A stretch of DNA of 64,000 nt, taken from assembly GCA_903821745.1 (NCBI GenBank), contig CAIJMI010000004.1:85542-149541 (forward strand). The letters run 5' to 3'. Both the position numbers and the translations under genes were made by a program. Numbering within the stretch: position 1 is the first letter of the stretch; each line of letters begins with the position of its first letter. This document shows, piece after piece, positions 2,030 to 49,145 of the stretch. A model generated the notes under the pieces. That model was not told the origin of the DNA, did not search any database, and worked only from the letters and a program-made list of their open reading frames with translations. Source of the stretch: Candidatus Gottesmanbacteria bacterium. GTDB lineage: Bacteria; Patescibacteriota; Microgenomatia; UBA10105; UBA927.

Positions 2030-2054
2030 AATCGTTAAGCTGCACTAGTATACA

Positions 2055-2621: not shown

Positions 2622-2665
2622 CTCTGTTTATTATATAATACCTTGATATTAAACGTTTCTTTCTT

Positions 2666-3628: not shown

Positions 3629-3636
3629 GCCAATGG

Positions 3637-4992: not shown

Positions 4993-5095
4993 GTCGACTC
5001 TTTTATAAAAGCGTTCGTAGTATAGATGAATTTATCCTTTTGCGAAAGTGATTCAGAATATAATAATATGTGGTATAAATAGACGATACATAACC

Positions 5096-7870: not shown

Positions 7871-7964
7871 TTTAGTGTCGTTGTTAAACTTCTTAGTTCT
7901 TCCTGTGTAATGTACTACAGTTTTCCAGACAAAACAATCTAGTGTTTGTTTTATTAAATTAGTA

Positions 7965-8011
7965 TTGACAAACTATCACCAGGCGATTATATTGTGGATA
8001 AATTGTCCACA
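7965..8011 (+). promoter_or_regulatory. dnaA promoter (TTGACA -35 at 7965-7970, 17-nt spacer, TATATT -10 at 7988-7993) overlapping two DnaA boxes (TGTGGATAA 7993-8001, TTGTCCACA 8003-8011)
   Basis: Direct sequence read: consensus -35, 17 nt spacing, near-consensus -10; perfect reverse-complement DnaA box and 1-mismatch box directly downstream, classic autoregulatory layout. Confidence 0.55.
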
Positions 8012-13917: not shown

Positions 13918-15789
13918 TTAAGATTGTTGAGGTTCCACAGTTTCAACAGTAAAAACCGGTCGGTTTGTGGGTAGTTGTTGTTTTTGAGGAGTCTGTTGAT
14001 TTTCTTCTGATTGTTTTGTTTCCGTCTCTTGCGGCTTTGTTGTTGCAAGGGCGTGTTCTTCTTTGCTTGCTATGATGCGGATTGCAGCATGTGCCGGCCC
14101 AGCAAACAACAATCCCTCACCAACATCCGAAGAGAGGAGTCGGTGTTTTTCCCCCTCAGAGAGATAAAATATTTCTGCAACCTTGTCGATTGCGGCGGTG
14201 GATTGTTTAAGAAGTATTTGCATGCTGCTGTTTTGGATAATCGTTTTCCCTAGATTCCCAGAAAGAAAATCTTCCACGTCTTGGGTAATAGTGGTAAGTC
14301 CGAGATAATATTTACGACTCCGTTTTGCAATAGAATTTAAAAATTGTGCAGAATCAGGATATTTCATGAGGTACCACGCCTCATCAACAACCAAGATTCT
14401 TCGCTTGATGGCTTTTCGAATTTTTGTCCAGATGAAATCAAGGATTAAATACATAGCAATTGGCCGAAGCTCATCTTCAAGATCGCGGATGGAAAAAACC
14501 GTAAGGGGATTGGTGATTTCCATATTGGATTGTTCATCAAAAATACCAACCAAACTTCCTTTAACAAATTTTTCAATCCGGTCTGCTAGCCCACGAGCAA
14601 TTGGGTCTTCCATTCCAGTGAGAGTCTTAAACAGGTCTTCCATTAGCGGCGGTTCATTGTTTTGTGTTGCAGGATCTGGAGTGATGCCCTTTTGTTTGTA
14701 AGTTAATACAAGTGCGCGATCAAGGATAGCATCCTCAGTGGATGTGAGTTTTCCCATGACGACTCGAAAAAATCCATGTAGTGATAATATTTTTTGATTT
14801 AAATCATTTTCTTCAGGACCCGCGTCTTTGAGAACAGAAAGATCAAAGGGATTAATTTTGGTTCTTCCACCAAATTCAAAACGGATATATTCTCCACCGA
14901 GGGTTTTGGTCAGCGCCTCATATTCGTTTTCAGGATCAATGATAATAACTTCAGTACCAAACATCATGCTTCGGATCACTTCGAGTTTGACCATGTAAGA
15001 TTTTCCAGAACCAGATTTTCCAAACACAACAGTATTTGCGTTTTCAAGTGTAAACCGATCAAAAATTACCAAACTTTCATTTCCCTCGTTAATGCCATAG
15101 AGAATTCCTTCGTTAGCGGTCAATTCTGACGTGGTAAACGGAAATGTTGTTGCAAGAGATGTTGTATCCATGTTTCTTGTGATCATGAGCCGATCTTGTC
15201 CCATAGGAAGCGTTGTTTTAAACCCTTCCTCCATCTGTAAAATTGCCTTTTTGGTCACAATCATGAGAGATGCAAGCGTTGCCTCGACCTGTTTTGTTGT
15301 TTTATCAAGTTCCTCTTTGGTTTTGGAAGGAATCGTGATATATAAACCAAACTGGAAAAAACGTTGTGCACCCTTTGCTAGTTCCTGTTGCAGAGAAAGT
15401 GCGTCTTCAAGTGCTACTTGAATGGATGGTTCAATGACACGGCCACGCTTTAGGTCAGATTGAATGGTTGCCTCCATTTCCCCGACTTTCCGTTTTAAAT
15501 TTTCCAAAATCTCTTCAGATTTGGAGGGATATACATACATCGAAACATCAAGGGTGTGATTAAAGGAAATCAGTGGTTCGAGCCAGTTTGCACTGACGTA
15601 GCGCGGATAGCCTGCCACAAACAGCGTGCGAACCAACTGATCACCAATGGTAAGAAAATCAAAATCAACCTCAATTGCTGGAGGTGCAATAATATCCTTG
15701 ACGGTTAATGGTCCTGTTGGTGCATGCCCCTTGAGGGGGTTTGGCGGCTGCATGGTGACAAATGTTTTGATGACGTTTTTTATATCCAT
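13918..15789 (-). CDS. virB4: Type IV secretion ATPase VirB4/TraE/PrgJ family
   Basis: Walker A VVFGKSGSGKSY, Walker B ILVVDEAWYLM, and overall VirB4/CagE C-terminal domain pattern. Confidence 0.85.
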   Translation of the reverse strand: MDIKNVIKTFVTMQPPNPLKGHAPTGPLTVKDIIAPPAIEVDFDFLTIGDQLVRTLFVAGYPRYVSANWLEPLISFNHTLDVSMYVYPSKSEEILENLKRKVGEMEATIQSDLKRGRVIEPSIQVALEDALSLQQELAKGAQRFFQFGLYITIPSKTKEELDKTTKQVEATLASLMIVTKKAILQMEEGFKTTLPMGQDRLMITRNMDTTSLATTFPFTTSELTANEGILYGINEGNESLVIFDRFTLENANTVVFGKSGSGKSYMVKLEVIRSMMFGTEVIIIDPENEYEALTKTLGGEYIRFEFGGRTKINPFDLSVLKDAGPEENDLNQKILSLHGFFRVVMGKLTSTEDAILDRALVLTYKQKGITPDPATQNNEPPLMEDLFKTLTGMEDPIARGLADRIEKFVKGSLVGIFDEQSNMEITNPLTVFSIRDLEDELRPIAMYLILDFIWTKIRKAIKRRILVVDEAWYLMKYPDSAQFLNSIAKRSRKYYLGLTTITQDVEDFLSGNLGKTIIQNSSMQILLKQSTAAIDKVAEIFYLSEGEKHRLLSSDVGEGLLFAGPAHAAIRIIASKEEHALATTKPQETETKQSEENQQTPQKQQLPTNRPVFTVETVEPQQS

Positions 15790-15792
15790 AGA

Positions 15793-16443
15793 TTATGTTG
15801 TTACTTTTGTTTGTAAGGATTGTGGCATAGCTACTCCTGGATTGTATAAAGAAAAAAAGAGTTGTATGAGTTGATCGTCTGTGAGTTGTTGCGCTTTAAG
15901 GCCAAGTTTTGAAAGAAGCCGTAATAAATGATCTCGCTTTGGTGTAAGCGCAATAAGTGCACGCTCCATAATGACGGATTTTGGATACGGCAAACCGCTT
16001 TTTTTGGTTGAAAACAGCACACCTGGAGAAACACCAAGCTCAAGATTGGAAAAGGGAATCACGATATAAAATTTTTTATCCAACACCTCTTTTTCTTTAA
16101 CTGTTGATTCAATAAAGGCTCGATACCCATGAATACTGGTCGCAAGCTTTGGATTGGTTTGTGCTTTTTCCTGCTCTTCTAAAAGATGAAGATATGCACT
16201 AATATCTTTGTGTTTTGAACGGACGATAATTTGAATGGGAAACGAGAGGGAATTTAAGATTCCTGCATATGCATAAATCATTGCCTCCTGTTCGTTTCCG
16301 GACAATAAACTGAAATTAACTGCAGCAACACTGATAATGAATGCGCAGGATCCATTGCCGAAAAGAACAAGGTTTTGACTGACGTCTTCAATCTCAGTAA
16401 ATTGTTGTGTTGAAGCTCGTATTGGAACAATAGGATCTGCCAT
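15793..16443 (-). CDS. Hypothetical protein (T4SS operon member)
   Basis: 216 aa ORF tightly packed between VirB3-like and VirB4 genes; no recognisable motif. Confidence 0.35.
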   Translation of the reverse strand: MADPIVPIRASTQQFTEIEDVSQNLVLFGNGSCAFIISVAAVNFSLLSGNEQEAMIYAYAGILNSLSFPIQIIVRSKHKDISAYLHLLEEQEKAQTNPKLATSIHGYRAFIESTVKEKEVLDKKFYIVIPFSNLELGVSPGVLFSTKKSGLPYPKSVIMERALIALTPKRDHLLRLLSKLGLKAQQLTDDQLIQLFFSLYNPGVAMPQSLQTKVTT

Positions 16444-16446
16444 ATG

Positions 16447-17700
16447 TTATGTGTTTGTTGTTTGTCCAAAAATTTGTTTTGCAAGCGTTTCTCGGTCAAT
16501 ATCCCGTTTGCTTTTTGCGCCAATTTCAATCGCAGGAACCACGGTTCCATTCAGTGTAACCTGTGCGCGGTCAAAGATATAGCGACCGCGGGGATCTTCA
16601 ACTTCAACAAAATACACCCCGTTGGGGAGTTGCGTTGATGCGGCAAACTGGCCAATTTTATTTGTTTTAAGTGCACGAAGGGGAATGCCCTCTTTGTCTC
16701 GTACCGTCACAAGAACGCCAGGAAGAAGTCCTCCTTGATTGTCCTTGATAATGCCGGTGACGACGTTTGCAAATGTGGTGAGCCTTGGTAACCCTGCACG
16801 AGCTGCTGCATCAGGCATAATAATTTTTACCGTTGGCCCCTGGGACTTTGGCGTGGTAGTAACGCTCGAAGGTTGCGATGGTTTGAGATGTGCCATTGGT
16901 TCGTTGGATTGTTTTTTCATAGTAACAAGCTGATGTTCCATTTCCTGTTTTTGTTTCATCATTTCCGTCATTTCTTGTTGTAGTTCAAGGACACGAGTTT
17001 CCGCTTGGGCCTTTTCGGTTAGTTCTGATTGTAACGATGCAATCTTATTTTGTAAGGCATCAAGTTCTGGATTTTTTTCTGGTTTCGGTTGTTGTACCAC
17101 TGCTGGTTGCGGTTGGGGAACCACAACGGGCTGAGGAGGTGCGGCGGGTTGTGGATTGGTGGACAAGATGGTGTGTGTTGGTTGTGGAAATAGTTTGTCA
17201 ACCCAAGAAAACAGTGAATCAAACAGCGATTTTTTTTGAACCGCGGGAGTTTGGGTATACAGGCCCTGAAGAGCTGCTGCAATCGGTGTAGCCGGTGACG
17301 TAGTGGGTGATGGCGTATTGACCGGTGTGGGCACGTTTGGTCGTTGAAGGGTGGGTGACGACTGTTTTTGTGCTACAGCAGGAGGCGGTGTTGTTTGCGG
17401 TTCTGGTTTTGGTTGAGTTCTGTGCCACACAAACTGCGTTGGAGTATAGACACTTTTTAAAAACGATAACACCCACACATCCATCGGCCGTTCCTCAATG
17501 GGAACAAATGCAAATCCAATACCAAGTAGCGCAAACAAAACCGTAAGTGGCCAGGTAAAAAAGAACGGCAAAGGAAGAATATACGAAAGGTACGCTAAAA
17601 TTGCTCCGCCCGCGAGGTACCCAAACTGTTTAATCGTCATATCGCCGATTAAACGGAATTGAAACGTTGTGACATTTTGCGGGACAGGATGTTGTTCCAT
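16447..17700 (-). CDS. VirB3/PrgI-like membrane protein with Pro/Gln-rich linker, coiled coil and C-terminal beta-sandwich (carboxypeptidase-regulatory-like) domain
   Basis: N-terminal two-TM region (LAGGAILAYLSYILPLPFFFTWPLTVLFALLGIGFAF) immediately upstream of virB4 as VirB3/PrgI is in Gram-positive T4SS; low-complexity PTPV/PQP linker; C-terminal GVLVTVRD...GVYFVEVE motif. Confidence 0.4.
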   Translation of the reverse strand: MEQHPVPQNVTTFQFRLIGDMTIKQFGYLAGGAILAYLSYILPLPFFFTWPLTVLFALLGIGFAFVPIEERPMDVWVLSFLKSVYTPTQFVWHRTQPKPEPQTTPPPAVAQKQSSPTLQRPNVPTPVNTPSPTTSPATPIAAALQGLYTQTPAVQKKSLFDSLFSWVDKLFPQPTHTILSTNPQPAAPPQPVVVPQPQPAVVQQPKPEKNPELDALQNKIASLQSELTEKAQAETRVLELQQEMTEMMKQKQEMEHQLVTMKKQSNEPMAHLKPSQPSSVTTTPKSQGPTVKIIMPDAAARAGLPRLTTFANVVTGIIKDNQGGLLPGVLVTVRDKEGIPLRALKTNKIGQFAASTQLPNGVYFVEVEDPRGRYIFDRAQVTLNGTVVPAIEIGAKSKRDIDRETLAKQIFGQTTNT

Positions 17701-17830
17701 AAGGACCTAAAATCTATTGTAAAGAAGAACAGATATTCTCGCAAGAGGAAAAGCGCGTTAGAACCGTGAAAACTTTAATTTTCATTTCACGAAAGAAGTG
17801 AAAAAGTTTTTCTTGTGATATGATTACCTC

Positions 17831-20011
17831 ATGAGTGAAGATTCTGTTGTTGTTGAAATAAAAAATACTAGAGACAGCGAAGAAACGCCCCTTGTCATGG
17901 AGCAGGTTTTTGCCGCTATAGGAAGTGGAAGACCACAAGGGTTTATATCACAATTGTTACATGGTGCATCAAAAGGGACATGGGTGAGTTTTGAAATTGT
18001 TGCGTTCGATAGTACAATTCATTTTTATCTCGTCACCGCACGTTCAACACTTGCATATATTGAAAGCCAATTAACCGCACAATATCCAAAACTTGCCGTG
18101 TCTGAAACGAAAGATGTGTTGCCACAAATCATGGGGACAATACACGTGACGACACAATTGGTATTAGCAAGCCCGTTTTATTATCCGCTTAAAACATATA
18201 AAGACGTTCGGGATATCGATTTACTTTCGAGCACGTTGGGGTGTTTAGCTAAACTAAAAAAAGATCAATCTGCAGTAGTCCAAATTCGAATTGTTCCTGC
18301 AGGATCTTCTTGGCAACGCCACGCTTCAAGTGTCGTTGCACACGGTATTCCAGACTCATCATTTCCGGGAAGAACAAAAAATCATCCGCAAGCCCGGCTT
18401 ATCGAAACAAAAACGAATCAAATTGGCTTTCAAACCGCAATAAGAATAGTTGCAACAGGAGAAAATCAGGAAGCTGCACAAACAACCCTTTCCACCATTG
18501 CTGGAACATTTGGGGTGTTTGGCCTTGGGGAAGGAAACGCGCTGGTTCCCAATAAACCGACTTTTTGGCAACAAAAAAAATTAGAAGCAGCAATTCTTGA
18601 ACGCTCGGGAGCGCTGGCACCAAAATTTCATGTACTTGGGTCTTCGGAACTTGCTTCACTGTGGCACCCACCAGGACTTTTGCTTTCAGCAATTCGAAAT
18701 ATCTCCTGGGGAGCAAAATTAACAGGCGAGGCGCCGGAGAATTTGCCAATTGCAACGGAAGATGAAGAAGAGAAAAAACGAATTAATTTTTTTGCGCGGA
18801 CCGAATTTAAAAATAAACTAACAACATTTGGAATTAAAAGCGATGATCGGAGAAAACACCTGTATGTTGTTGGAAAAACAGGCACCGGAAAATCAACCAT
18901 GATTGCAACCATGGCAATTAACGACATGCGAAACCATGAGGGTATGGCCGTTATTGATCCTCATGGAGATTTAACAGATGCGCTGTTGGATTTTGTTCCG
19001 TCTTTTAGGTTGAATGACGTTGCGTATCTTGATCCTGCAGATTTTGAACACCCGTTTCATCTGAACCCACTAGAACTCAAAAATCCTGCACATCGAGAGC
19101 TAGTTGCATCAGGAATTGTGTCTATTTTTTACAAGCTGTATCACTATTCTTGGGGACCGAGACTCGAATATATTCTCAGAAATTGTATTTTGACACTGTT
19201 ATACGTTCCAAACTCAACACTCTTGGAGATTCCAGAAATTCTTACTAATGACAGATATCGAGAAAAGATTGTCATGGGCCTTCCAGATCACGTGTTAAAG
19301 AATTTTTGGATCAATGAATATAACAAATTGACGCCACAGATGAGAAGTGAGTCAATCATGCCAATTTTAAATAAGGTGGGTCAATTTTTATCATCTCAAA
19401 CAATCAGAAATATTGTGGGAAATCCAAAATCAACCATAGATCTTGAAGAAATGATGAACAAAGGAAAAATTATTTTAGTGAATTTATCACAGGGAAAATT
19501 AGGGGAAGACAACAGCGCACTATTGGGCGCCATGATTATTACAAAAATTCAACTTGCCGCAATGAACCGCGTCTATGAGCAAGAACAGACTAGAAAAGAC
19601 TTCTATCTCTATGTTGACGAGTTTCAAAATTTTGCAACAAGTTCATTCATTAAAATTCTTTCTGAAGCCAGGAAGTATCGGCTCAACTTGACGCTTGCCA
19701 ATCAATATATCGGACAAATCGATGAAGATGTCCAGAATGCTATCTTTGGAAACGCTGGATCCATTGTGTCGTTTTGTGTTGGCGCAACGGACGCACGGCC
19801 ACTAGCTCGGGAATTTGGACTCAAATACAAGGAAGAAGAATTAGTACAACTTGGCAACTATCAAATCGTATTAAAGCTTTCCATTGATAACCATACATCA
19901 AGTCCATTCTCAGCTACCACCTTGCCGCTTCCCAGGTCTCATAACCAAAGTAGGGAAAAGGTGATTCGGTCAAGCCGTGAACGGTATACCAAAACAATTG
20001 AGAAGTCATAA
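17831..20011 (+). CDS. T4SS coupling-protein-like ATPase (VirD4/TraG/TraD family, FtsK/HerA superfamily)
   Basis: Walker A VVGKTGTGKST, VIDPHGDL motif, Walker B LYVDEFQNF; no N-terminal TM helices, so could alternatively be a cytoplasmic DUF87/HerA-like ATPase. Confidence 0.5.
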   Translation: MSEDSVVVEIKNTRDSEETPLVMEQVFAAIGSGRPQGFISQLLHGASKGTWVSFEIVAFDSTIHFYLVTARSTLAYIESQLTAQYPKLAVSETKDVLPQIMGTIHVTTQLVLASPFYYPLKTYKDVRDIDLLSSTLGCLAKLKKDQSAVVQIRIVPAGSSWQRHASSVVAHGIPDSSFPGRTKNHPQARLIETKTNQIGFQTAIRIVATGENQEAAQTTLSTIAGTFGVFGLGEGNALVPNKPTFWQQKKLEAAILERSGALAPKFHVLGSSELASLWHPPGLLLSAIRNISWGAKLTGEAPENLPIATEDEEEKKRINFFARTEFKNKLTTFGIKSDDRRKHLYVVGKTGTGKSTMIATMAINDMRNHEGMAVIDPHGDLTDALLDFVPSFRLNDVAYLDPADFEHPFHLNPLELKNPAHRELVASGIVSIFYKLYHYSWGPRLEYILRNCILTLLYVPNSTLLEIPEILTNDRYREKIVMGLPDHVLKNFWINEYNKLTPQMRSESIMPILNKVGQFLSSQTIRNIVGNPKSTIDLEEMMNKGKIILVNLSQGKLGEDNSALLGAMIITKIQLAAMNRVYEQEQTRKDFYLYVDEFQNFATSSFIKILSEARKYRLNLTLANQYIGQIDEDVQNAIFGNAGSIVSFCVGATDARPLAREFGLKYKEEELVQLGNYQIVLKLSIDNHTSSPFSATTLPLPRSHNQSREKVIRSSRERYTKTIEKS

Positions 20012-20033: not shown

Positions 20034-20588
20034 ATGAAGATCGGACTTTTCGGAGGAAAGTTTAATCCACCCCACATTGGGCATATTTTTATTGCCGAGC
20101 AGTGTTTGGACTTTGGCGGATTTGATGAAGTGTGGTTTATGCCAAACTATGGACAGAGCTTCCATGAGCCGGTGGCGCCGGTTGCAGATCGGCTTGCAAT
20201 GACAAAATGTATGTCTCTATCCCGGACAAAAATTTCAACTATTGAAATAGACAACAAACTGGATGGACAAACCATTCATTTATTACCATTTTTGCCAAAA
20301 GAACATGAATATACATTTATTATTGGATCCGATCAGTTGGCAACATTTCATCTATGGGGAAGTTACAAGGAATTATTGCGCCAGCTTCCCTTTATGGTTT
20401 TTCCTCGGTATGGATATCCGAATGAACCAATGTATGAACATATGCGCGTTCTTTCCCATCCTTCATTAATTGCTGCTAATTTGTCCTCAACAAAAATTCG
20501 GGACCGGGTAAAATTAGGACTTTCTATTGAGAATTTTGTTCCAAAAGGGGTAGCCACATACATTAAGGATCATAAGTTATATCTATGA
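20034..20588 (+). CDS. nadD: Nicotinate-nucleotide adenylyltransferase
   Basis: N-terminal GGKFNPPHIGH (H/T)xGH nucleotidyltransferase motif. Confidence 0.85.
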   Translation: MKIGLFGGKFNPPHIGHIFIAEQCLDFGGFDEVWFMPNYGQSFHEPVAPVADRLAMTKCMSLSRTKISTIEIDNKLDGQTIHLLPFLPKEHEYTFIIGSDQLATFHLWGSYKELLRQLPFMVFPRYGYPNEPMYEHMRVLSHPSLIAANLSSTKIRDRVKLGLSIENFVPKGVATYIKDHKLYL

Positions 20589-21370
20589 AACAAATAGATG
20601 CAGAACAAGAAACAGGAAAGATTATTGCCTTTATTAAACAATCATTTCAAAGCGCAGGATTTTCAGATGTAGTAATTGGACTTTCTGGTGGTGTTGACTC
20701 GACAGTTTCTTGTATCCTTGCGACTCGTGCATTAGGGTTAGAACACGTGTATCCGATTCTTTTGCCCTATGGACCATTAAATACAAGAGGTGTCTTGGAT
20801 GCCATGGAGCTGATTGAAAAACTCAAGCTTCCCATGAGTCATGTCGTACGGATTGATATGCAACCTGCGGTTGATGCAATTGTTCGGATTGATCCGTTTA
20901 TGAACCGCATCAGAAAAGGCAATATAATGGCACGTGTTCGTATGACGTACCTGTTTGATCAGGCAAAAAAAAGAAATGCACTAGTAATGGGCACAGAAAA
21001 TAAAAGTGAACATCTGTTGGGATATTTTACGCGATTTGGTGATGAAGCCAGCGATGTAGAGCCAATATTACATATGTATAAAACGCAAGTATTTGTATTG
21101 GCAAAATATCTTGAAGTGCCGCAAACTATTTTGAATAAAGCTCCATCTGCAGATTTATGGCCCGAGCAAACAGACGAGGGGGAATTAGGATTTACCTATG
21201 AAGAAGCAGATGAAGTATTGTATTTAGCAAATGACGAACATAAATCCAAGGCAGAAATTATCAAGAGTGGTTTGGGTGAAATCCAAGTTAATGCGATTTT
21301 TCAGCGTATTGATAAAAATAAATTCAAGATCTTAACGGATCATGGGATAAAATTTTTTGGTATGTCGTGA
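20585..21370 (+). CDS. nadE: NH3-dependent NAD+ synthetase
   Basis: PP-loop SGGVDS motif; overlaps nadD stop (ATGA). Confidence 0.85.
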   Translation: MKQIDAEQETGKIIAFIKQSFQSAGFSDVVIGLSGGVDSTVSCILATRALGLEHVYPILLPYGPLNTRGVLDAMELIEKLKLPMSHVVRIDMQPAVDAIVRIDPFMNRIRKGNIMARVRMTYLFDQAKKRNALVMGTENKSEHLLGYFTRFGDEASDVEPILHMYKTQVFVLAKYLEVPQTILNKAPSADLWPEQTDEGELGFTYEEADEVLYLANDEHKSKAEIIKSGLGEIQVNAIFQRIDKNKFKILTDHGIKFFGMS

Positions 21371-21430: not shown

Positions 21431-24400
21431 ATGGGAACAGAATCAAAAGAGGGTTTAGGAAAAGCAATCGAAGCAACCGTTCAGGTGGTTAAAGCTGCTG
21501 TTGGAATAGAGGGAAACGATCAGTCGCAAACCACCATTGCCGCGGTGAGAAAAATAGAAAAAGAAAAAGCTGAAGCAAGAAAAATTACAGAAGGACTTGA
21601 AACCAATCCATCAAAAACCGAAGCAGAGCTCCAGAAAAAACCAAAAGAACACGTTTCTATTAAAGAGGCGAATGTTCTTTTAGAAAAAGCAACGAGTGCC
21701 CCGCAGGCAAAAAATGTTACATGGTTAATCAGTGAGGTTGGAGATGTGCACCATAATCCAGATGCAATTGCTTTTGTTGCAAGAATTGCAGAAGCGCCAA
21801 CACAGCTGCAAGACGATCCACATTACCTGCTTGCAGAAGGAGCAAAACTTTTTTGGTCAACACCATGGGGTGAACTTTCATCTGAGGCGCACAGGGAAAC
21901 AAGGGCAATATTAAAAAGTGTGTTTAATCGTGTTGAACAACTGCGAGAAAATAATCCAGATTTTACCATTGACCCCGACGTTGTGCGTGAAGGTTTACTT
22001 CCAGAGGCAAGGATGGGACAAAGACAACGGCAACAGAGAAATGGACCACACGTAATGGCGACAGCTGATAATTGGCTAAAAGATTTTGATATTCCTAAAA
22101 ATGAAAGAGGAGAGGTAATTCCGATAAGTGCTGATACGGCAAGAGTAGTTGCTCGGTTCCAAGAATTAGGAAGCAAACAAAATCCTAGAGAAATATCAGA
22201 AGCATGGACGGAAATAGAAGAACTACGAAGATCACAGGCGCATTTAATATCTCCAGATGAAGAGGCATATCTTGAAAGAGTGAAAAAACGTATTTATGAA
22301 ACATTTTGTACGATGAATGGTGACAGATTGCAATTTAGTCCAAATGAATTAAATCAAATTATAAGGGGTCCAAACGCAGCAAGTTTGCGTGATAAATTGT
22401 TTTATGACCGTATTAAAAAGATCCTGTTAAATCCAAACGAAGAGACGCATAAACAAATTAATCTTTATGATCAAGTGGATATGGACATTCTGATGTCCGC
22501 ATACTCTCAAGCTGTCGAAGTTGATCCTCGTACGGGAGTAGAAAGGAAAATCGGTTCCAGTGTTCAGGCACATTATCAGAATCTTTATGACACAATATTA
22601 CGTTTATCAGATACGGAATTTTGGGCAAGGCATCCCGCTGGCGATGTAGAGAATTTACAAAAAACCCTTGGTTATTTTGAAAATAAATTTGCTGTTGAAG
22701 CAATGTCAGATCCTCTTGTTGAGGATATGACGCAATGTATGGAATTGGCCATAAAATTTGTTCGCGATGCAAACGACGGCACCATTCCAGGTGAGCTTTC
22801 ACGATATAATCCAAGAACACAAAGGACATATATTGATGATTTAACATTACAATTTTTTAATCAACGAATGAGAAGTGGTGCAGTAAGAGACTATGTGAGA
22901 AATCCTCAAACTGGTATTCCTGAAGTGGACCCAAAAAATAACGGGAGAACTTTTCTTCGTTCAGACAACGCATTTCATTTTGATACTTTAGTTGAAGAGG
23001 AAAAAGAACTTCGATTATTAGCAACCCTTCGTTTAGCAAAAGGCGTTGGTATTATTACAAATAGAACCATAGAGCTTTACGCTTTCACGCGTACTCCAGG
23101 GGTGGGTCCAAAAGCTGAATCAGGATCTAGATCTGGTTTTTCTAGCAAGGCTTATGGAGGATTAACTCGGTGGACAAATCCGCTTTCCGAATGGTTTGAA
23201 ATGTATGGTTTTGGTGATACATTACATGTTCCTTTTTTCAATGCGCTTCTTGGTGCCGATGGAAAACCGTTTAATTGGAACATGGATCAATTTAAGGAAG
23301 TTATTGATTTAGTCATGGGTGGTGCAAGCGAAAAACAACTTCAAGCAAAGTTCGGACCAAACGCTGGACGAATAATGGATATGGTAAACGACTTTAGCTT
23401 TTCAGGTAGGTTCGGTCCATTATCTATGTGGGGAACGAAAGATGCGACGCTTGATTGGACATTCAAAGAAAACGAACGGCTTGGTGGTTCCATGCGATTG
23501 TCTTTGGCTGGAGGTTGGGCAGAGGAAAAGGTTAAAGCGCGATTTGAGAAAGCTAATGCACATCAAGGATGGACAAAAAGGCAAATGGATGAAGAGTGGA
23601 CAAACGCACGGTTTGGCGAAGGACATTGGGGGGAAAATAATCAATGGAAGCGGGGTGTGGAATTAGAAACCAAGGCATACAAAACGCTGATTTGGTCTCA
23701 AAGCATTTTAAGAAATCCCTTAGGCGCTGCCGCATCCCAAAAAATTGAATACAGATCCTTAGATGGTAGAACACATCAAGGAAAATTAAAAAGCAAAATA
23801 TTACATGATATTTTTCTTCCTGAAGATTTAGCAGCATACGGTCTTACTGACTTGGTGGTGGAACGAGATGTTGCATCAATGCGGTCAATTAGCACGGATA
23901 AACGTTTATTGATGGAACGGATTTCAGTCGTTGATAGTGATTTAAGTTCTGTAATGCGATATGCAATGAATAGTGGAGAATTTCCGCGAGATATTGAATT
24001 GTCAGATTTTGAACGATGTATCGTTGGAGACATTATTATTGATGGGCCCAATGGAAAACTAACAATTACCGAAGAAACACGAAGAAGACAGGCAACGGAA
24101 TTTTGGAAAAAGACTCAACGAGAAATATTGGGGAAAGCAGTTGGAGATGGAGGTCGAGGTTTCGATGCATTAGAAATTAGACAAGAGCTTGGAATTCAGG
24201 GGAACGATGCGGTTCTTAAGCCCAGTGAGATAATCTTTTCTAATATCAACAATTTGGAATCCATTATTGAGAATGCCGCATCATCTAATGCCGCTATGCC
24301 ATTAAAGGAAATGCTTCAGCAACGAATTCAGGTTCATCTTGGCACTGAGGATACTCAATGGAGATATTTAGATTTAGACACGCTTGGAGATCGTCATTGG

Positions 24401-24952
24401 GGGCGTCGTGGAGGAGATAATTTAACTCGGGCAAAAACAGTAAAACTAATGATGGACTATTTTCATAAGCTTGTGGGAAAACCAAAAATGGAAGATTTGG
24501 TAAAAGCTATTGCCGAAATTGGACAATCAGAAAAAGGACATGATCCCAAGGAGGCAGCTAAATTTGCATATATATGGGCAACAGCAACAGCGGACATTTA
24601 TAGACAAAGAAATCTTGCGGAAATTCCGTTTATTGGAAGAATTTTACCAAAACTGGGTATTCCTATGTCCATAGCGCAGGAAAAAATGGGTGTAAATAGC
24701 GCAGATTTTTGGAGTGCCAATAATATGGTGAAATTTGCAGATTTACTTGGGGGGACAAGAGTTATACCAGGACAAAGAATCATAGACGGAAAAGACTTCG
24801 GTCCATATAATATGAAGAAATTTAGAAAAGACATAGGAGCCAGCCGTATCGCAGCGGCGCTTGAAATTTTGATTATTGGTGGTTCATTGGCCGCTGTTAC
24901 ATCCATGTTAGCAGGTGCAACAAAATCCATGGAAGACGAAAAGAAGAAATAA
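21431..24952 (+). CDS. Giant (1173 aa) tail-anchored hypothetical protein within T4SS locus
   Basis: No signal peptide, no recognisable catalytic motif, single C-terminal TM helix (IAAALEILIIGGSLAAVTSMLAG) followed by KKK; sits between nadE and virB6-like gene. Confidence 0.5.
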   Translation: MGTESKEGLGKAIEATVQVVKAAVGIEGNDQSQTTIAAVRKIEKEKAEARKITEGLETNPSKTEAELQKKPKEHVSIKEANVLLEKATSAPQAKNVTWLISEVGDVHHNPDAIAFVARIAEAPTQLQDDPHYLLAEGAKLFWSTPWGELSSEAHRETRAILKSVFNRVEQLRENNPDFTIDPDVVREGLLPEARMGQRQRQQRNGPHVMATADNWLKDFDIPKNERGEVIPISADTARVVARFQELGSKQNPREISEAWTEIEELRRSQAHLISPDEEAYLERVKKRIYETFCTMNGDRLQFSPNELNQIIRGPNAASLRDKLFYDRIKKILLNPNEETHKQINLYDQVDMDILMSAYSQAVEVDPRTGVERKIGSSVQAHYQNLYDTILRLSDTEFWARHPAGDVENLQKTLGYFENKFAVEAMSDPLVEDMTQCMELAIKFVRDANDGTIPGELSRYNPRTQRTYIDDLTLQFFNQRMRSGAVRDYVRNPQTGIPEVDPKNNGRTFLRSDNAFHFDTLVEEEKELRLLATLRLAKGVGIITNRTIELYAFTRTPGVGPKAESGSRSGFSSKAYGGLTRWTNPLSEWFEMYGFGDTLHVPFFNALLGADGKPFNWNMDQFKEVIDLVMGGASEKQLQAKFGPNAGRIMDMVNDFSFSGRFGPLSMWGTKDATLDWTFKENERLGGSMRLSLAGGWAEEKVKARFEKANAHQGWTKRQMDEEWTNARFGEGHWGENNQWKRGVELETKAYKTLIWSQSILRNPLGAAASQKIEYRSLDGRTHQGKLKSKILHDIFLPEDLAAYGLTDLVVERDVASMRSISTDKRLLMERISVVDSDLSSVMRYAMNSGEFPRDIELSDFERCIVGDIIIDGPNGKLTITEETRRRQATEFWKKTQREILGKAVGDGGRGFDALEIRQELGIQGNDAVLKPSEIIFSNINNLESIIENAASSNAAMPLKEMLQQRIQVHLGTEDTQWRYLDLDTLGDRHWGRRGGDNLTRAKTVKLMMDYFHKLVGKPKMEDLVKAIAEIGQSEKGHDPKEAAKFAYIWATATADIYRQRNLAEIPFIGRILPKLGIPMSIAQEKMGVNSADFWSANNMVKFADLLGGTRVIPGQRIIDGKDFGPYNMKKFRKDIGASRIAAALEILIIGGSLAAVTSMLAGATKSMEDEKKK

Positions 24953-24963
24953 TAACCAATAGC

Positions 24964-26343
24964 TTAGGCTGAAGGAGGTTTGGGTTTTGTCTTCAGATTC
25001 TGCAGAATTGATTGTCCATAATAGAAACCAGATACCGCTTGTGTCCCCGTTTGGAATGCTCCAGTAATTGGGCTTAATGCAGCTCCTGCACCCATCGGAA
25101 CCATTGGTTTTGCTTTAAGTGATTCTTGGATTCCTTTGACGATATTTGGAATGATAAAAAGCATACCAAGACCAATAAGCCCTCCAACACCTCCACTACC
25201 GGTTCCCAACATTGGAGGAGTCCAGGTTTTTGTAGATGTACCAATTAAATACCAGCTTACAGTTATGCAAATGGCAGTGATTGGAAAAACGATGAGATGA
25301 GAAATAAGATTTTTTATCCACGAAGCAAACCCATTTCCTCCTGGAACAGCATCGAGCAGTAATTGAATAGGAGCGGTAATAAGACTGATAATGATTTGTA
25401 TGTATGCGTTTAAAAGCATGAAAAAGAGGCGAACTCCACCAAAGAGAAAAGCAAGAGATAAAAGAACAAAGATTAATACTCCCACTACATCATAGACTGG
25501 ATTAAAAAGAGCAAAATAACCAAGTTGTGATTGGCCAGGAAAGAGAAAAGCCATGAGGTCGGGTAATGAGTTAAATCCTGCAAGAAGACCTCGGTTGACA
25601 GCGGAAAAACTACTACTGGAGATGCGCGTAATATGTCCAGCATCAAACATTCCTGTGGGACTTGCATTAACAATAAGTTGAACCCCAAGAATAAGGACAA
25701 CATACATAAGATCAATTAAAATTCCAACAATCGCATAGGAGAAGGTAATAAGAATAAGGGTGATGACGATTTTTGGGAGCGCATTTTGGACTGTTACAAC
25801 AGTTTTTGGATCAATCTTTTTTCGAAACATCACCATAAATCCAATGACAACCATGATGATTGCAAGAAGCGCGTAGCTAATATTTCGGAACGCTTTCCAA
25901 ATGGGAAGGAGTGTTACAAGTCCAGAAAAACCTATGCCTTGCGCATATGCTTTTTTGGGCATAAACCCAAGGGTTTGTCCCATATCTTGCACAAAGGCAT
26001 ATGTTGATGCGGGCGGATTTGCATACATGGTATAGATATAGTTAGATAATCCAGCCATGGCACTTTGTTGCCGCATCGCCTCTGCATAGGGAGTATTCAT
26101 ATCCGCAGCAGATACTGTCAGCCCAGGAACAGGTCCTAAGACACGCCTCACAAAATCTGAGTAGTTATTAGTGTTTACATTTGATACATGAGCAGCAGCG
26201 TTAACATCAGATTGTTTTGCAGCTGCGCTCATGCTTTCTGCATAACCCGCGTCCACCCAACTGGTCTCTTGTGCGTGCACACGAAGAGGCAGTAAGAAAA
26301 GGGTAAAGAGAAAGAAAATCACGTAATACAAGGACCGTTTCAT
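24964..26343 (-). CDS. VirB6/TrbL-like polytopic T4SS membrane protein
   Basis: Signal peptide (…LPLRVHAQE) then >=6 TM helices over 459 aa; immediately upstream of pilin-like gene array. Confidence 0.5.
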   Translation of the reverse strand: MKRSLYYVIFFLFTLFLLPLRVHAQETSWVDAGYAESMSAAAKQSDVNAAAHVSNVNTNNYSDFVRRVLGPVPGLTVSAADMNTPYAEAMRQQSAMAGLSNYIYTMYANPPASTYAFVQDMGQTLGFMPKKAYAQGIGFSGLVTLLPIWKAFRNISYALLAIIMVVIGFMVMFRKKIDPKTVVTVQNALPKIVITLILITFSYAIVGILIDLMYVVLILGVQLIVNASPTGMFDAGHITRISSSSFSAVNRGLLAGFNSLPDLMAFLFPGQSQLGYFALFNPVYDVVGVLIFVLLSLAFLFGGVRLFFMLLNAYIQIIISLITAPIQLLLDAVPGGNGFASWIKNLISHLIVFPITAICITVSWYLIGTSTKTWTPPMLGTGSGGVGGLIGLGMLFIIPNIVKGIQESLKAKPMVPMGAGAALSPITGAFQTGTQAVSGFYYGQSILQNLKTKPKPPSA

Positions 26344-30116: not shown

Positions 30117-31259
30117 ATGAAATTAAATAAAACAGAGTCAGTATCCAGAAGACGAAAAGAAGTTGAAAAATACTTACATATTTCTCTTGCTAACACTGGC
30201 TCCTTTTCACTGGATGAAGAAATGGCTGCAACACGGCACTGTGAACACATGATTGGGGTAACGCAAGTTCCACTCGGTGTTGCAGGCCCACTCAAATATA
30301 GAACGTTGCAGTCACCATTTCAGGAAGTATATCTTCCACTTGCCACAACGGAGGGTGCGCTTATTGCATCTATTAATCGGGGATGTAAAGCAATTGTTGA
30401 AAGTGGAGGAGCGGTCGTGGATAGCTATGATGTTGGGGCAACACGTGGTCCGGTATTTTACACAAAAAATTTGAAGGAAAGCGATCGACTAAACATATTT
30501 TTGGATGCGCATCTTAAAGAAATGCAACAACTTGTTCGAGTTACATCGAATCACTGTACACTAAAAAAAATATTTTCCCGTGGTGTTGGACAATATCGGT
30601 TTGTTCGTTTTGTGTTTGATACACAAGATGCCATGGGCTTAAACATGGTAACCATTGCCACAGAAAAAATTGCACAATATATCGAAGAAAAAACAGGAAT
30701 TGTTTGCGTTTCATTATCCGGAAACTATTGTGTCGACAAAAAGCCATCATGGCTTAATGCAATTGAGGGGCGTGGCTCAAAAGTGTGGGCAGAAGTTGTT
30801 ATTCCGGAAACAGTAATAAAAAGCATACTTAAAACAACGGCGCAAAATATATATGACGTCTGGATTTCAAAATGCATGATGGGAAGCGTGATGAGTGGTT
30901 CGATGGGCTATAACGCACAATTTGCCAATGTCCTAGCAGCGGTCTTTTTGGCAACAGGCCAGGACATCGCACATGTTATAGAATGTTCAATTGGTATCAC
31001 CACGACGGAAGTTCGCGGGAAAGATTTATATGTGAGTGTGTATTTGCCGGACCTTTTGGTGGGCACTGTGGGTGGCGGGACCGAACTTGCCACGCAAAAA
31101 GAAGCATTACAAATTCTTGGCGTATATGGAAAAGACAAAAAACAATTTGTAGGAATTATTGGGGCAGCGGTGCTTGCTGGAGAAATTTCACTCCTGGCGA
31201 GCTTGGCTGAAGGAACGCTTGCGAAAGCACACATAAAGCTGGCAAGAGGAAAGAAATAA
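30117..31259 (+). CDS. hmgA: Hydroxymethylglutaryl-CoA reductase
   Basis: Conserved HMGR motifs EHMIGVTQVPLGVAGPL, DAMGLNMV, GTVGGGT; 380 aa. Confidence 0.85.
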   Translation: MKLNKTESVSRRRKEVEKYLHISLANTGSFSLDEEMAATRHCEHMIGVTQVPLGVAGPLKYRTLQSPFQEVYLPLATTEGALIASINRGCKAIVESGGAVVDSYDVGATRGPVFYTKNLKESDRLNIFLDAHLKEMQQLVRVTSNHCTLKKIFSRGVGQYRFVRFVFDTQDAMGLNMVTIATEKIAQYIEEKTGIVCVSLSGNYCVDKKPSWLNAIEGRGSKVWAEVVIPETVIKSILKTTAQNIYDVWISKCMMGSVMSGSMGYNAQFANVLAAVFLATGQDIAHVIECSIGITTTEVRGKDLYVSVYLPDLLVGTVGGGTELATQKEALQILGVYGKDKKQFVGIIGAAVLAGEISLLASLAEGTLAKAHIKLARGKK

Positions 31260-31266
31260 TACAGAT

Positions 31267-32310
31267 ATGATTGGCATCGTCTCATACGGAACATATGTAC
31301 CAAAATATCGGGTGAGAGTTACCGATATAGCTTCTGCATGGAAGAAAAATCCCGCTGATATTATCGGTGTCCTTGGGGTAAAAGAAAAAACGGTTCCCGG
31401 TGTGGATGAAGATGCAGTAACCATAGCGGTAGAGGCAGCACTGCAAAGTCTGAAAAATTTTCATGGGATCCCAGCAGATATTGAAGCTTTGCTTATTGGA
31501 TCAGAAAGCCATCCATATGCAGTGAACCCTTCATCAACTATTGTTGGGGAGATGCTTGAAATTGGAAACAAGTATTTGGCATCGGATTTGGAATTTGCAT
31601 GTAAAGCAGGAACTGCCGGCATGCAAATGATTGCCAGTTTGGTTTCCTCAGGGCAAATAACCTATGGTATGGCCATTGGTGCAGATACCGCACAAAGCAA
31701 ACCTCACGATGCGTTGGAATATACTTCCGCTTCTGCAGGAGTTGCAATGTTGATGGGGAAAACAAAGACGATTGCATCGTTGTTGTCATACACATCCTAT
31801 TCTTCAGACACACCAGATTTTTGGCGGCGTGATGGAATTCGGTATCCGTCACATGCAGGCAGATTTACTGGAGAACCTGCATATTTTGCACACGTTATGG
31901 GAGCAGCAAACCAATTGATGAAAAAAGTGCGTATTCAGCCTAAAGATATTGATTACTGTATTTTTCATATGCCAAATGGAAAATTCCCTCGTGAAGTTGC
32001 AAAACGGTTGGGATTTACCGAGAAACAATTGGCTCCGTCTTTGACTGTTGATTATATCGGCAATCCCTATTCTGCATCAGCCATGATGGGGCTTGCTGCG
32101 GTACTCGATATTGCAAAACCAAACAAAAAAATATTTATGGTGTCCTACGGATCAGGTGCAGGGAGCGACGCATTTTTATGGAAAACAACAGCAAACATTA
32201 CTGCGTTGCAGGCAAAACGAAAAAAGCAGCAAGGTCTAGTGATGCAACAAGTGGAACAGAAAAGCTTTGTCGATTATCTTGGATATCTAAAACAAACACA
32301 CAAAATATGA
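31267..32310 (+). CDS. Hydroxymethylglutaryl-CoA synthase (archaeal/PksG-like type)
   Basis: N-terminus MIGIVSYGTYVPKYRV typical of archaeal HMGS; thiolase-like fold; followed by thiolase and DUF35 genes. Confidence 0.8.
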   Translation: MIGIVSYGTYVPKYRVRVTDIASAWKKNPADIIGVLGVKEKTVPGVDEDAVTIAVEAALQSLKNFHGIPADIEALLIGSESHPYAVNPSSTIVGEMLEIGNKYLASDLEFACKAGTAGMQMIASLVSSGQITYGMAIGADTAQSKPHDALEYTSASAGVAMLMGKTKTIASLLSYTSYSSDTPDFWRRDGIRYPSHAGRFTGEPAYFAHVMGAANQLMKKVRIQPKDIDYCIFHMPNGKFPREVAKRLGFTEKQLAPSLTVDYIGNPYSASAMMGLAAVLDIAKPNKKIFMVSYGSGAGSDAFLWKTTANITALQAKRKKQQGLVMQQVEQKSFVDYLGYLKQTHKI

Positions 32311-33449
32311 ACATAACCGTTGCAGGAATCGGTATTACAAAGTTTGGAGAATTATGGTCAGCCTCTCCGCGGTCGCTTGCGAAGATTGCGGTGGAAATGG
32401 CAATTGCTGATAGCGGTGTTGAAAAGAAATCAATTCAAGGATTGTTTGTTGCAAATATGCTTGCAGGAATGCTGGGAATGCAGGGTCATCTTGGCGCATT
32501 ATTTTCTGAAGAGCTGGGACTTTCTGTTCCTGCATATACTGTTGAAGGAGCGTGTGCATCTGGCGGACTGGCAGTACAAGCCGGTGTCATGAGTATTCTG
32601 TCTGGACAGTACGATACCGTCGTAGTACTTGGGGTAGAAAAAATGACGGATCACAAACCGGAAGAAGTAAGCTCTGCATTGATGGGGGCGGGAAGTAATG
32701 AAGAGCGACTTGCAGGTGCAACATTCCCGGGACTCTATGCCATGCTTGCTCGGGCGCATATGGAAAAATTTGGTACAACAGAAAAACAAATGGCAGCAGT
32801 TGCAGTAAAGAATCATTTTCATGCAAGTTTAAACCCAAATGCACAATATAAGAATACAATTACCGTTGATCACGTACTGCGCAGTTCTTGTATTGCAGAC
32901 CCATTGAAACTTTTGGATTGTTCTCCAGTAACAGATGGCGCCGCAGCAATTGTCCTTACGAAAGACACAAAAAACAAAAAAGGAGTGCATATCATTGCTT
33001 CCCAAATAGCAACAGATACGTTGGGACTTGCGGGGAGGAAAAGCTTAACTGAGCTTTCTGCAACCAAACAAGCAGCGCAACATGCATTTATCCAAGCTGG
33101 AGTTGGTCAAAAAGATATTCATCTTGCGGAAGTACATGATTGTTTTACCATTGCAGAAATTCTTGCCATTGAAGATATTGGATTTGGAAAAAAAGGAGAA
33201 GTTGGAAGAGAGATGGAACATGGTACATACACGCTTGGAACTGCACCGGGAGTTGTTGTGAATTCGTCAGGAGGACTGAAAGGGTGTGGTCATCCAATTG
33301 GTGCAACTGGTGTAAAACAAATTGTTGAAATTACCAGCCAATTACGAGGAACGTGCGGAAAACGGCAGGTTCATGATGCAAAAATTGGACTTGCACATAA
33401 CGTTGGGGGAAGTGGCGCAACCGCGGTTGTTCACATTTTACAAAAATAA
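32307..33449 (+). CDS. Acetyl-CoA acetyltransferase (thiolase, archaeal type)
   Basis: Start set at MNITVAGIGITKFGE (ATGA overlap with HMGS stop); C-terminal thiolase motifs GCGHPIGATG and NVGGSGA. Confidence 0.8.
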   Translation: MNITVAGIGITKFGELWSASPRSLAKIAVEMAIADSGVEKKSIQGLFVANMLAGMLGMQGHLGALFSEELGLSVPAYTVEGACASGGLAVQAGVMSILSGQYDTVVVLGVEKMTDHKPEEVSSALMGAGSNEERLAGATFPGLYAMLARAHMEKFGTTEKQMAAVAVKNHFHASLNPNAQYKNTITVDHVLRSSCIADPLKLLDCSPVTDGAAAIVLTKDTKNKKGVHIIASQIATDTLGLAGRKSLTELSATKQAAQHAFIQAGVGQKDIHLAEVHDCFTIAEILAIEDIGFGKKGEVGREMEHGTYTLGTAPGVVVNSSGGLKGCGHPIGATGVKQIVEITSQLRGTCGKRQVHDAKIGLAHNVGGSGATAVVHILQK

Positions 33450-33453
33450 AAAT

Positions 33454-33753
33454 ATGATAAGCCCTGTTAAAATTTGGCGAAATCAAAAACACACAGCGAA
33501 ACTCGTCGGAAAAACCGGCAGTATTTTAGTCTGGACCATTATCCGCGTGCCACCTGAAGGATTTAGTAATCAAGCACCGTATCCACTTGCGGTGGTTGTT
33601 CTTGATAAAGGACCAACTATTACTGCACAGGTTGTTGATTGGGACGAGAAACAATTGCACACAAAACAAAAAGTGATTACGGTTATTCGTCGGACAATTG
33701 ATACAACTGCTGACGGGGTGATTCCATACGGCATGAAAGTAAAACCAGTATGA
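33454..33753 (+). CDS. DUF35 OB-fold protein (HMGS/thiolase complex partner), no Zn-ribbon
   Basis: ~99 aa ORF immediately after thiolase, start MISPVK 4 nt after thiolase stop; position and size match third subunit of archaeal thiolase/HMGS complex; lacks Cys of Zn ribbon. Confidence 0.5.
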   Translation: MISPVKIWRNQKHTAKLVGKTGSILVWTIIRVPPEGFSNQAPYPLAVVVLDKGPTITAQVVDWDEKQLHTKQKVITVIRRTIDTTADGVIPYGMKVKPV

Positions 33754-34688: not shown

Positions 34689-34693
34689 GAAAT

Positions 34694-43518: not shown

Positions 43519-43570
43519 CTTAAGAAAAACGGCGAATATATAGGAACAATCTATATACCGCCGTATTTTT

Positions 43571-44845: not shown

Positions 44846-44865
44846 CAAAAATCATCAATGCACAA

Positions 44866-46524: not shown

Positions 46525-46531
46525 AATGTTC

Positions 46532-49106: not shown

Positions 49107-49145
49107 TGGCCTCAATCTCAATTTCGTAGTAAAATGCATCCATTG

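Follow-up and report, generated by a model that had tools for sequence, protein, structure and literature searches.

A large modular protein family at the type IV secretion locus of Microgenomates

The window analysed here is a whole 64-kb stretch of DNA from a Candidatus Gottesmanbacteria contig (CAIJMI010000004.1), in which we focused on a single gene, hereafter called BIG (21431..24952, + strand; ATG start, 1173 amino acids (aa) plus stop), located inside a type IV secretion system (T4SS) locus. BIG is a type-1 member of a Microgenomates-specific, previously undescribed family, which keeps a conserved slot beside the T4SS genes, is built of modules with recognizable boundaries and mosaic histories, and has no known homolog or fold. 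It may be an accessory subunit of the secretion machine, a reading that is weighed below against its rivals.

Genetic Context

The T4SS locus of the window starts directly past dnaA (8032-9399, +) and dnaN (9590-10696, +). On the minus strand lie the genes for an M23 peptidase in the VirB1 role (11686-13899), a VirB4 of 623 aa with a TraG P-loop domain (13918-15789), a TrsD/TraC-like protein (15793-16443) and a PrgI (VirB3-like) fusion protein (16447-17700), all four being recognized by Pfam/NCBIfam models. The gene for a VirD4-like coupling ATPase (17831-20011, +) then begins a co-directional run that continues with nadD (20034-20588, +), nadE (20585-21370, +) and BIG. Converging on the end of BIG from the minus strand, a 459-aa polytopic membrane protein with a signal peptide (24964-26343), hereafter the partner, occupies the VirB6 position, followed by an array of six divergent VirB2-like T4SS_pilin genes matching PF18895 (26382-28651, -). 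Beyond the array, at higher window coordinates, lie genes for a sigma factor and Yip1 as well as a mevalonate-pathway cluster. The region 8032-28651 thus holds the components of a Patescibacteria-type (MPF_FATA-like) T4SS, i.e., VirB4, PrgI/VirB3, a TrsD-like protein, a hydrolase and a pilin array. The lowest point of the cumulative GC skew falls at about 8-10 kb of the window, which is consistent with a replication origin there, and an origin-proximal placement of the T4SS has been reported for Microgenomatia and Paceibacteria. Patescibacterial T4SS have been described as MPF_FATA-like, equipped with pilin arrays, often near dnaA/dnaN and devoid of a relaxase (PMC12102498; PMC10633639; PMC12857230).

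Recognizable genes for VirB8 and VirB10 are absent from the T4SS locus of the window. At the end of the minus-strand operon, after the M23 peptidase, an open reading frame (ORF) of 342 aa (10700-11728, -) has no Pfam or NCBIfam match, and a counterpart of about 327-329 aa stands at the same place in two of the loci retrieved below (L001 and L004); this ORF could be the missing VirB8-like piece.

The earlier note on this DNA had correctly placed BIG between the VirD4-like/nadDE genes and the gene at the VirB6 position, but its description of the latter as VirB6-like holds in part only. Position and topology support it, as does the UniRef label "Type IV secretion system protein" of one of the 937 homologs of the partner, whereas the protein has no Pfam match and no PDB sequence match, so that "VirB6-like" is to be understood as a positional and topological term. 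Within the partner, Arg305 is invariant in nine sequences and lies inside a long hydrophobic stretch, probably a transmembrane helix. Its homologs are labelled as Candidatus Gottesmanbacteria, Blackburnbacteria or Microgenomates group, a placement that fits the mevalonate cluster of the window, since most Microgenomates carry this pathway (PMC6107057).

Sequence and Predicted Structure of BIG

With its 1173 aa, BIG is the largest ORF of the window, the second largest having 737 aa. It is a real gene: homologs of like length align with it end to end and share its start pattern (MGTESKE, MATETKPG, MAETEREK). In a Kyte-Doolittle scan, the only segment above 1.3 is found at aa 1135-1165 (peak 1.89), and no segment of the N-terminus qualifies as hydrophobic; similarly, none of the 118 full-length relatives (see below) has a signal-peptide-like hydrophobic N-terminus or a second hydrophobic segment above 1.52. 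A motif search of BIG found no P-loop, HExxH, HxH, GxSxG or LPxTG. The protein has three cysteines, no internal repeats were found, and no coiled coil was detected except in one K/E-rich stretch (aa 43-70). In these respects (the largest ORF, without signal peptide or recognizable enzymatic motif, and with a single C-terminal hydrophobic helix), the earlier note was right. Conjugative relaxases, which are large substrates encoded beside coupling proteins, carry an HUH (HxH) metal motif and a catalytic Tyr domain that MOB/Pfam models detect; lacking the HxH motif and any Pfam or NCBIfam match, BIG was rejected as one of them. The scans for promoters and terminators returned signals at the level of shuffled sequences and are uninformative, while the GC content at third codon positions of BIG is slightly low in two genomes (0.28 vs. 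0.30-0.38 and 0.33 vs. 0.37-0.42), a difference too weak to argue for a foreign origin.

Database searches with BIG and its relatives were equally negative. Pfam yielded nothing significant for BIG alone (best CP12, E=0.12, below cutoff) nor for 38 diverse family members, apart from a single TPR_26 match in one of them; NCBIfam and PHROGs gave nothing relevant for representatives of the four body types distinguished below; and the PDB sequence search with the single BIG protein produced no match. When a profile was used against the PDB, Lon protease (E=7.5e-4) and designed helical bundles were matched, but we regard these matches as compositional, because all of them align to the K/E-rich helical N-terminal third of BIG.

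An AlphaFold run on seven sequences was unusable (predicted local distance difference test score, pLDDT, of 54.6), and the model used here was instead computed from 50 family members (mean pLDDT of 85; predicted template modelling score, pTM, of 0.74). The protein is predicted to be almost entirely helical, with few hairpins, with an N-terminal domain at aa 36-193 that a disordered linker (aa 194-211) joins to the large body, and with a helix at the very end (aa 1139-1172); the pTM value indicates a compact body rather than a fibre. Foldseek searches with this model were unsuccessful, whether against the PDB (best E=0.12, TM-score of about 0.1) or BFVD (best TM-score of 0.06), and no T4SS component was among the structural matches listed (top 50-60 per search). 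As modelled, BIG is thus a confidently predicted protein without known homolog or known fold.

The BIG Family and Its Slot in Related Loci

A word-index search returned seven relatives of BIG (alignment A1, seven sequences; 21-76% identity in the family alignment), and the same seven proteins came back when the search was repeated with a 50-sequence alignment. A full Hidden Markov Model (HMM) scan from the seven-sequence alignment was more productive: proteins representing 137 clusters (clustered at 50% identity) were recovered, nearly all of 1000-1400 aa, and 62 scored E<1e-30, which does away with the view of BIG as an orphan taken by the earlier note. The metagenome scan yielded four loci, and the two scans of the genome-contig collection found no relative. 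Members of the family share a length of 1000-1400 aa (in nearly all cases), the lack of a signal peptide, an N-terminal domain with the pattern WL..NP..IA.AP..LQ.DP..L, and a C-terminal hydrophobic helix followed by a charged tail; BIG has all of these traits, as well as the convergence with the gene at the VirB6 position.

The genomic slot is as constant as the architecture. Wherever it was examined, i.e., in the window and in 13 distinct related loci that between them include the four body types, BIG or its homolog stands tail to tail with a polytopic homolog of the partner (460-530 aa), beyond which the pilin genes are found wherever the contig reaches that far. The related loci are L002 (on a 1-Mb contig), L004, L005/L011 (one contig), L007-L010 and L012-L015, while L003 is a second assembly of the L002 locus and L001 is the own contig of the window. 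Two of them (L014 and L015) were sampled from the partner gene, not from BIG, and display the same convergence; in L007, only a fragment of the convergent gene is present. Two contigs say less: on that of P0079, the only trace of a gene converging from downstream is an 84-aa fragment, possibly of the partner family, and that of P0040 has no informative neighbour. Every locus (10-24 kb each) holds exactly one copy, and BIG is neither split by frameshifts nor missing at the related T4SS loci, being intact everywhere we looked. The link between BIG and the T4SS proposed in the earlier note is supported by a slot that is kept in 13 distinct loci and all four types, including those reached from the partner.

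Upstream of BIG, the neighbours vary: nadE, a hexokinase (L013), or insertions of toxin-antitoxin and YcaO genes (L002, L005, L015). Insertions occur on either side of the BIG-partner pair, also between the partner and the pilins, but none separates BIG from the partner in the 13 loci. Synteny supports the link between BIG and the T4SS without proving it, for gene order is conserved among the related genomes across a wider region (dnaA-dnaN, T4SS, nadDE, sigma factor, Yip1, mevalonate cluster), in which nadD and nadE are neighbours just as constant.

As a side observation, toxin-antitoxin and other mobile-looking genes (AbiEii, MNT/HepT, YafQ, HicAB, BrnT, an IS1595 transposase, and YcaO plus a nitroreductase) gather in the relatives at two spots, the nadE-BIG interval and the interval between the VirB6-position gene and the pilins (L002:7812-9831 and 15354-15897; L005:2143-9979 and 15425-16543; L015:9174-9617 and 14512-19354). 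In L014, an insertion at 5288-7395 separates the pilin array from the sigma-factor gene and encodes two proteins, one of 253 aa with a vWA domain and the other of 441 aa.

Modules, Body Types and Mosaicism

The N-terminal helical domain of BIG (aa 36-193; 21536..22009, +), with the core motif WL..NP.A..VARIA.AP..LQDDPhYLLAEGAKL, is the only part common to the four types. It is followed by an indel-rich, low-confidence linker (aa 194-211; 22010..22063, +; pLDDT <50), at which P0005 has an insertion of about 100 aa and across which the pattern of similarity switches, so that the linker is likely to be the junction between modules. Then come a type-specific alpha-helical body without internal repeats (aa 212-940; 22064..24250, +) and, before the terminal helix, a C-terminal module (aa 941-1135; 24251..24835, +), where conservation across 50 sequences places the residues that the family keeps best (D974, G986, R992 and D996 of "RRxxD", S1080 and N1097).

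An all-against-all BLAST sorts the 118 full-length members into the four body types, with 62, 30, 21 and 5 representatives. Two proteins of the same type can be aligned along most of the sequence, two proteins of different types at relative positions 0.05-0.18 only. When types 1 and 2 were compared with hhalign, the probability was 99%, restricted to the N-terminal 245 columns, and it dropped to 9% once the N-domain and the tail had been removed. Under the latter conditions, the C-module still gave a weak cross-type match near RRxxD (88.6% for types 1-3 and 85% for types 2-3). Likewise, the HMM of the type-1 N-domain (aa 36-193) matches 27/30 representatives of type 2, 21/21 of type 3 and 5/5 of type 4, whereas the HMM of the type-1 body (aa 212-940) has zero matches among types 2, 3 and 4. 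All types occupy the same slot of the locus, as seen in the window (type 1), L004 (type 2), L012 (type 3), and L014 and L015 (type 4).

Two relatives illustrate how these modules differ in their histories. The genome of L004 is closer to the window than that of L002, with identities of 85.5% for VirB4, 75.7% for VirD4, 75.6% for the TrsD-like protein and 73% for NadD (vs. 69.7% for VirD4, 61% for the TrsD-like protein and 38% for NadD in L002). Yet P0007, the homolog of L004, is closer to BIG in its N-domain only (42.6%, with 15.6% in the body and 24.4% in the C-module), P0004 of L002 showing 28%, 45% and 60% in the same three parts. Since the similarities of the N-domain and the body thus disagree between relatives, BIG is a mosaic gene; and because the closer genome has the closer N-domain alone, the N-domain follows the machinery, and the other modules have had a history of their own. 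Lower identities to the window are seen for the envelope and host-facing genes of L004 (M23 peptidase 32%, VirB6-position protein 46%, pilin 56%), the M23 peptidase being the second most divergent after BIG in this comparison.

The C-Terminal Helix and Tail

BIG ends in a hydrophobic helix (aa 1139-1164; 24845..24922, +) and a charged tail, KSMEDEKKK (24923..24949, +). Within type 1, Glu1145, inside the helix, is at least 90% conserved (50-sequence alignment), and K1165 and E1168 are invariant in A1. The terminal KKK, which the earlier note took for a stop-transfer signal, is not conserved: what the family keeps is an acidic tail, KSxE[DE]E, often followed by Gly/His runs, and the basic cluster is located upstream of the helix. 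In BIG, this basic flank (KKFRKDIGASR) carries about +4 vs. about +1 after the helix, and the mean charges before and after the helix have the same asymmetry in type 1 (+0.6/-1.3) and type 3 (+2.4/-0.6). Together with the lack of a signal peptide, the basic flank and the acidic stub are consistent with the topology predicted by the earlier note, i.e., a cytoplasmic mass held by a C-terminal anchor.

Tail-anchored proteins, a topological class rather than a homology family, have no signal peptide, a single transmembrane helix within about 50 residues of the C-terminus and a cytoplasmic N-terminal mass. In its sequence, BIG looks like such a protein, with 19 uncharged residues following E1145, but the uncharged C-terminal stretch of types 2-4 is of about 12-16 residues, which is short for a true transmembrane helix; hence, the term transmembrane is safe as a prediction for BIG, not for the whole family. 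A sortase or exosortase sorting signal, which would combine a signature motif such as LPxTG, a transmembrane helix and a basic tail with an N-terminal signal peptide, was considered and rejected, there being no LPxT[GAS] motif and no signal peptide, and the family tail being acidic. The E-block signal of Dot/Icm substrates is a Glu-rich stretch within the last 20 residues or so, recognized by DotM. An acidic tail is found in 70 of the 118 relatives, but the locus is not of type IVB and has no DotM, so that this is a resemblance only.

Comparison with Known Systems

The best point of comparison is the T4SS of Southlakia epibionticum, which is essential (PMC12102498, PMC10633639, PMC12857230). 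According to the published annotations, its cluster (SEML1_0006-0019) is like that of the window in lying beside dnaA/dnaN, in its hydrolase, VirB4, TrsD-like and PrgI/VirB3 proteins, in a polytopic VirB6-position protein and in six divergent VirB2-like pilins. By the same annotations, it differs in having no large, signal-peptide-less and C-terminally anchored protein, its large proteins being 0007, a peptidase, and the VirB6-like 0011 and 0013. The latter two have ARM-like domains at the C-terminus and are labelled as ABC-2 permeases in KEGG, and one of the two also has a membrane domain of the MAPEG-like kind. From these annotations, we rejected the equivalence of BIG with SEML1_0007, 0011 or 0013. 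More broadly, a BIG-like protein goes unmentioned in the sections covered, by keyword search and section-wise reading, of the published descriptions of such T4SS loci.

The window is also unlike most surveyed Patescibacteria (Quinonero-Coronel et al. 2025) in having its VirD4-like gene inside the locus, which is rare in the survey: only 148 of 5,713 patescibacterial homologs of the type IV coupling protein were near virB4 (PMC12102498). The coupling protein of Southlakia is distant from the T4SS locus and non-essential. The VirD4-like ATPase of the window (17831-20011) has an N-terminal DUF8128, and its position within the locus is conserved among relatives.

Other systems resemble BIG in their logic, with no sign of homology. 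DotU/IcmH and TssL combine a cytoplasmic N-terminal domain with a single C-terminal membrane helix and act in secretion membrane complexes, a tail-anchored layout to which that of BIG may be likened, although homology tests were negative. In LXG toxins of the type VII secretion system, Xanthomonas T4SS effectors of the X-Tfe group (XVIPCD) and Bartonella Beps (BID), a conserved terminal module that follows the machine is joined through a linker to an exchangeable remainder. BIG appears similar in its conserved terminal module, exchangeable remainder and mosaic similarity, but differs in the constant size of the remainder, in always having a hydrophobic helix and a charged tail, in being single-copy and in lacking an immunity-like neighbour; moreover, it matches neither PF04740 (LXG) nor any other Pfam family. 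Finally, TraN of F-like plasmids is likewise associated with a T4SS, conserved at both ends and variable in between, and exists as a few discrete structural types. BIG would parallel it in the discreteness of its types, and again in logic alone, since TraN is Sec-exported, Cys-rich and located in the outer membrane of diderms, while BIG has three cysteines, no signal peptide and belongs to a monoderm lineage.

Possible Roles of BIG

The earlier note was well advised to see in BIG either a scaffold or a substrate/effector. Of these options, we lean tentatively towards the former, in a form to which we would still grant less than an even chance: BIG as a lineage-specific, C-terminally anchored, cytoplasm-facing accessory subunit of the Microgenomates T4SS. 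Made in the cytoplasm without a signal peptide, it would be part of a Patescibacteria-type (monoderm, MPF_FATA-like) machine, with its C-terminal helix entering the membrane once translation is complete. About nine residues, acidic and basic, would then protrude on the outside, while a compact helical mass of about 1130 residues would be suspended below the membrane, at the machine's base. The N-domain would dock on conserved cytoplasmic machinery (the VirD4-like ATPase, VirB4 or the TrsD-like protein), as suggested by its being the only part common to all versions and by its similarity following the ATPases. The C-module and the helix with Glu1145 would lie against the VirB6-position partner with Arg305, a pairing of Glu1145 and Arg305 being possible, and the exchangeable central body would provide a platform for selecting, holding or gating the material moved by the T4SS. 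That the helix inserts, how BIG is oriented, which proteins it touches at either end and what its body does are inferred here. Several observations favour the reading: no signal peptide in BIG or the 118 relatives, a single C-terminal hydrophobic segment and a charge asymmetry that would fit an N-in/C-out orientation (all features of the sequence), one copy per locus, a fixed size and the convergence with the partner in 13 loci, an N-domain that tracks the ATPases, the conservation of Glu1145 and of Arg305 of the partner, and the compact body indicated by the pTM.

Several observations sit uneasily with an internal subunit, and make a client the close rival. In four out of four genome pairs, BIG is the most divergent gene of the locus (31-43% identity or unalignable vs. 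42-85% for the others), and only aa 7-190 can be aligned with the homolog of L004; this pattern is nearer to that of the envelope and host-facing genes than to that of the cytoplasmic VirB4 (85%), VirD4 (76%) and TrsD-like protein (76%). Four bodies that HMMs cannot align, along with the mosaicism of N-domain and body, are unusual for an internal scaffold; the motif at the extreme C-terminus is conserved even though the external stub would be tiny (about nine residues); the helix is short in types 2-4; and nadD and nadE are conserved neighbours as well, devoid of a T4SS role, which makes synteny alone a weak argument. If BIG were instead a membrane-targeted protein delivered by the T4SS rather than a machine part, a possibility that we find somewhat doubtful, the N-domain would recruit it to the coupling ATPase, while the C-module, the moderately hydrophobic helix and the acidic tail would serve as a signal for translocation and membrane insertion. 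Delivery would be to the epibiont-host interface or to the host membrane, where the body would have a host-specific job as a conduit, an anchor or a means of host manipulation. T4SS substrates have no signal peptide and usually carry C-terminal signals, and the extreme C-terminus of BIG is conserved and acidic. Its rank as the fastest-evolving gene of the locus, its four bodies and its mosaicism are the pattern expected under host-driven diversification, and fast divergence is seen in the pilins and the M23 hydrolase too. Furthermore, a helix as short and weakly hydrophobic as that of types 2-4 could stay out of the producer's own membrane. BIG also follows the VirD4-like gene, in a lineage that keeps its coupling protein inside the locus, as few do in the survey cited above, and the T4SS of Saccharibacteria is essential and thought to export proteins rather than DNA (PMC10633639).

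Against delivery stand the single copy and the fixed size and architecture of BIG in every locus. Polymorphic effectors join a delivery domain to many unrelated cargo domains of varied size and usually come with a cognate immunity gene, whereas no immunity-like gene is adjacent to BIG and nearly all full-length profile-matched proteins are of 930-1590 aa, a common size class that leaves no cargo-size diversity of this kind. To our knowledge, no secretion signal has been defined for any monoderm T4SS. In its fullest version, which we judge possible but on the unlikely side, the BIG family would be the locus-encoded principal cargo of the system (about 130 kDa), recruited by the N-domain, exported C-terminus-first and planted in the host membrane by the terminal helix, with one of at least four interchangeable bodies building or controlling the connection between epibiont and host.

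Could BIG simply be a bystander, i.e., a fast-evolving, lineage-specific, membrane-associated protein near oriC that has no more to do with secretion than nadD and nadE? Synteny among the related genomes is strong throughout the region, BIG and the partner cannot be co-transcribed because they are convergent, and neither sequence searches nor the structural matches listed connect BIG to any T4SS protein. However, the adjacency of BIG, partner and pilins survives changes of upstream neighbours and all four body types, and insertions flank the BIG-partner pair without ever splitting it in the 13 loci, so that we consider this explanation improbable. The proposal in the earlier note of a VirB10/TraG-like structural analog (or of an extended VirB6) fares far worse. 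Its only merits are the size of BIG and its location in a T4SS locus without recognizable VirB8 and VirB10 genes; by contrast, BIG is all-alpha, has a single C-terminal hydrophobic helix and shows no sequence match to the TrbI/VirB10 or TraG families, which makes such an analogy very hard to believe. VirB10/TrbI proteins have an N-proximal transmembrane helix, a Pro-rich linker and a C-terminal beta-barrel TrbI domain (PF03743), a description that BIG does not fit in any of the features checked, and TraG_N/extended VirB6 proteins (TrbL) have five or more transmembrane helices, while the 118 relatives show no second hydrophobic segment and BIG has no Pfam match.

Whichever of the two leading readings is correct, BIG would be a large component or client tied to the T4SS of Microgenomates, which are among the largest uncultivated groups. 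The kind of system is known, i.e., the patescibacterial T4SS; what is new is an undescribed modular partner with an unmatched fold, four body types, mosaicism and fast evolution. Patescibacterial T4SS are widespread, without relaxase and, in the one species tested, essential for growth on the host (PMC10633639, PMC12102498, PMC12857230), and BIG is a concrete candidate for T4SS cargo or for host contact. As a cargo or specificity factor, it would bear directly on the exploitation of hosts by ultrasmall epibionts; as the principal cargo, it would be the first candidate substrate of a T4SS that these ultrasmall bacteria are thought to need, as well as a determinant of host range. Should the accessory-subunit reading hold, BIG would show that the cytoplasmic side of a monoderm T4SS can be assembled in a manner not seen before.

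Other Features of the Locus and the Window

The PrgI/VirB3-like protein (16447-17700, -) has 417 aa, far more than the 91 positions of the Pfam PrgI model. Its residues 314-370 form a CarboxypepD_reg-like (Ig-like) domain, weakly matched, and this fusion is kept in relatives. In L002:1-2333 and L003:1-2339, the VirB4 gene is interrupted by an intein (Intein_splicing plus a LAGLIDADG homing endonuclease) that roughly doubles the protein to about 1224 aa; no intein is present in the VirB4 of the window (623 aa).

The mevalonate cluster (30117-36597) looks complete and is syntenic in relatives: it encodes HMG-CoA reductase, an HMG-CoA synthase-like protein, an archaeal-type thiolase with its OB-fold partner, two GHMP kinases and diphosphomevalonate decarboxylase. 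Positions 1-8000 of the window have a GC content of 0.33-0.365, clearly below that of the rest (0.38-0.44). Further downstream, a tmRNA gene (43111-43521) precedes a cluster of six tRNA genes (44761-50207) devoted to Ser (four anticodons) and Arg (two anticodons) only.

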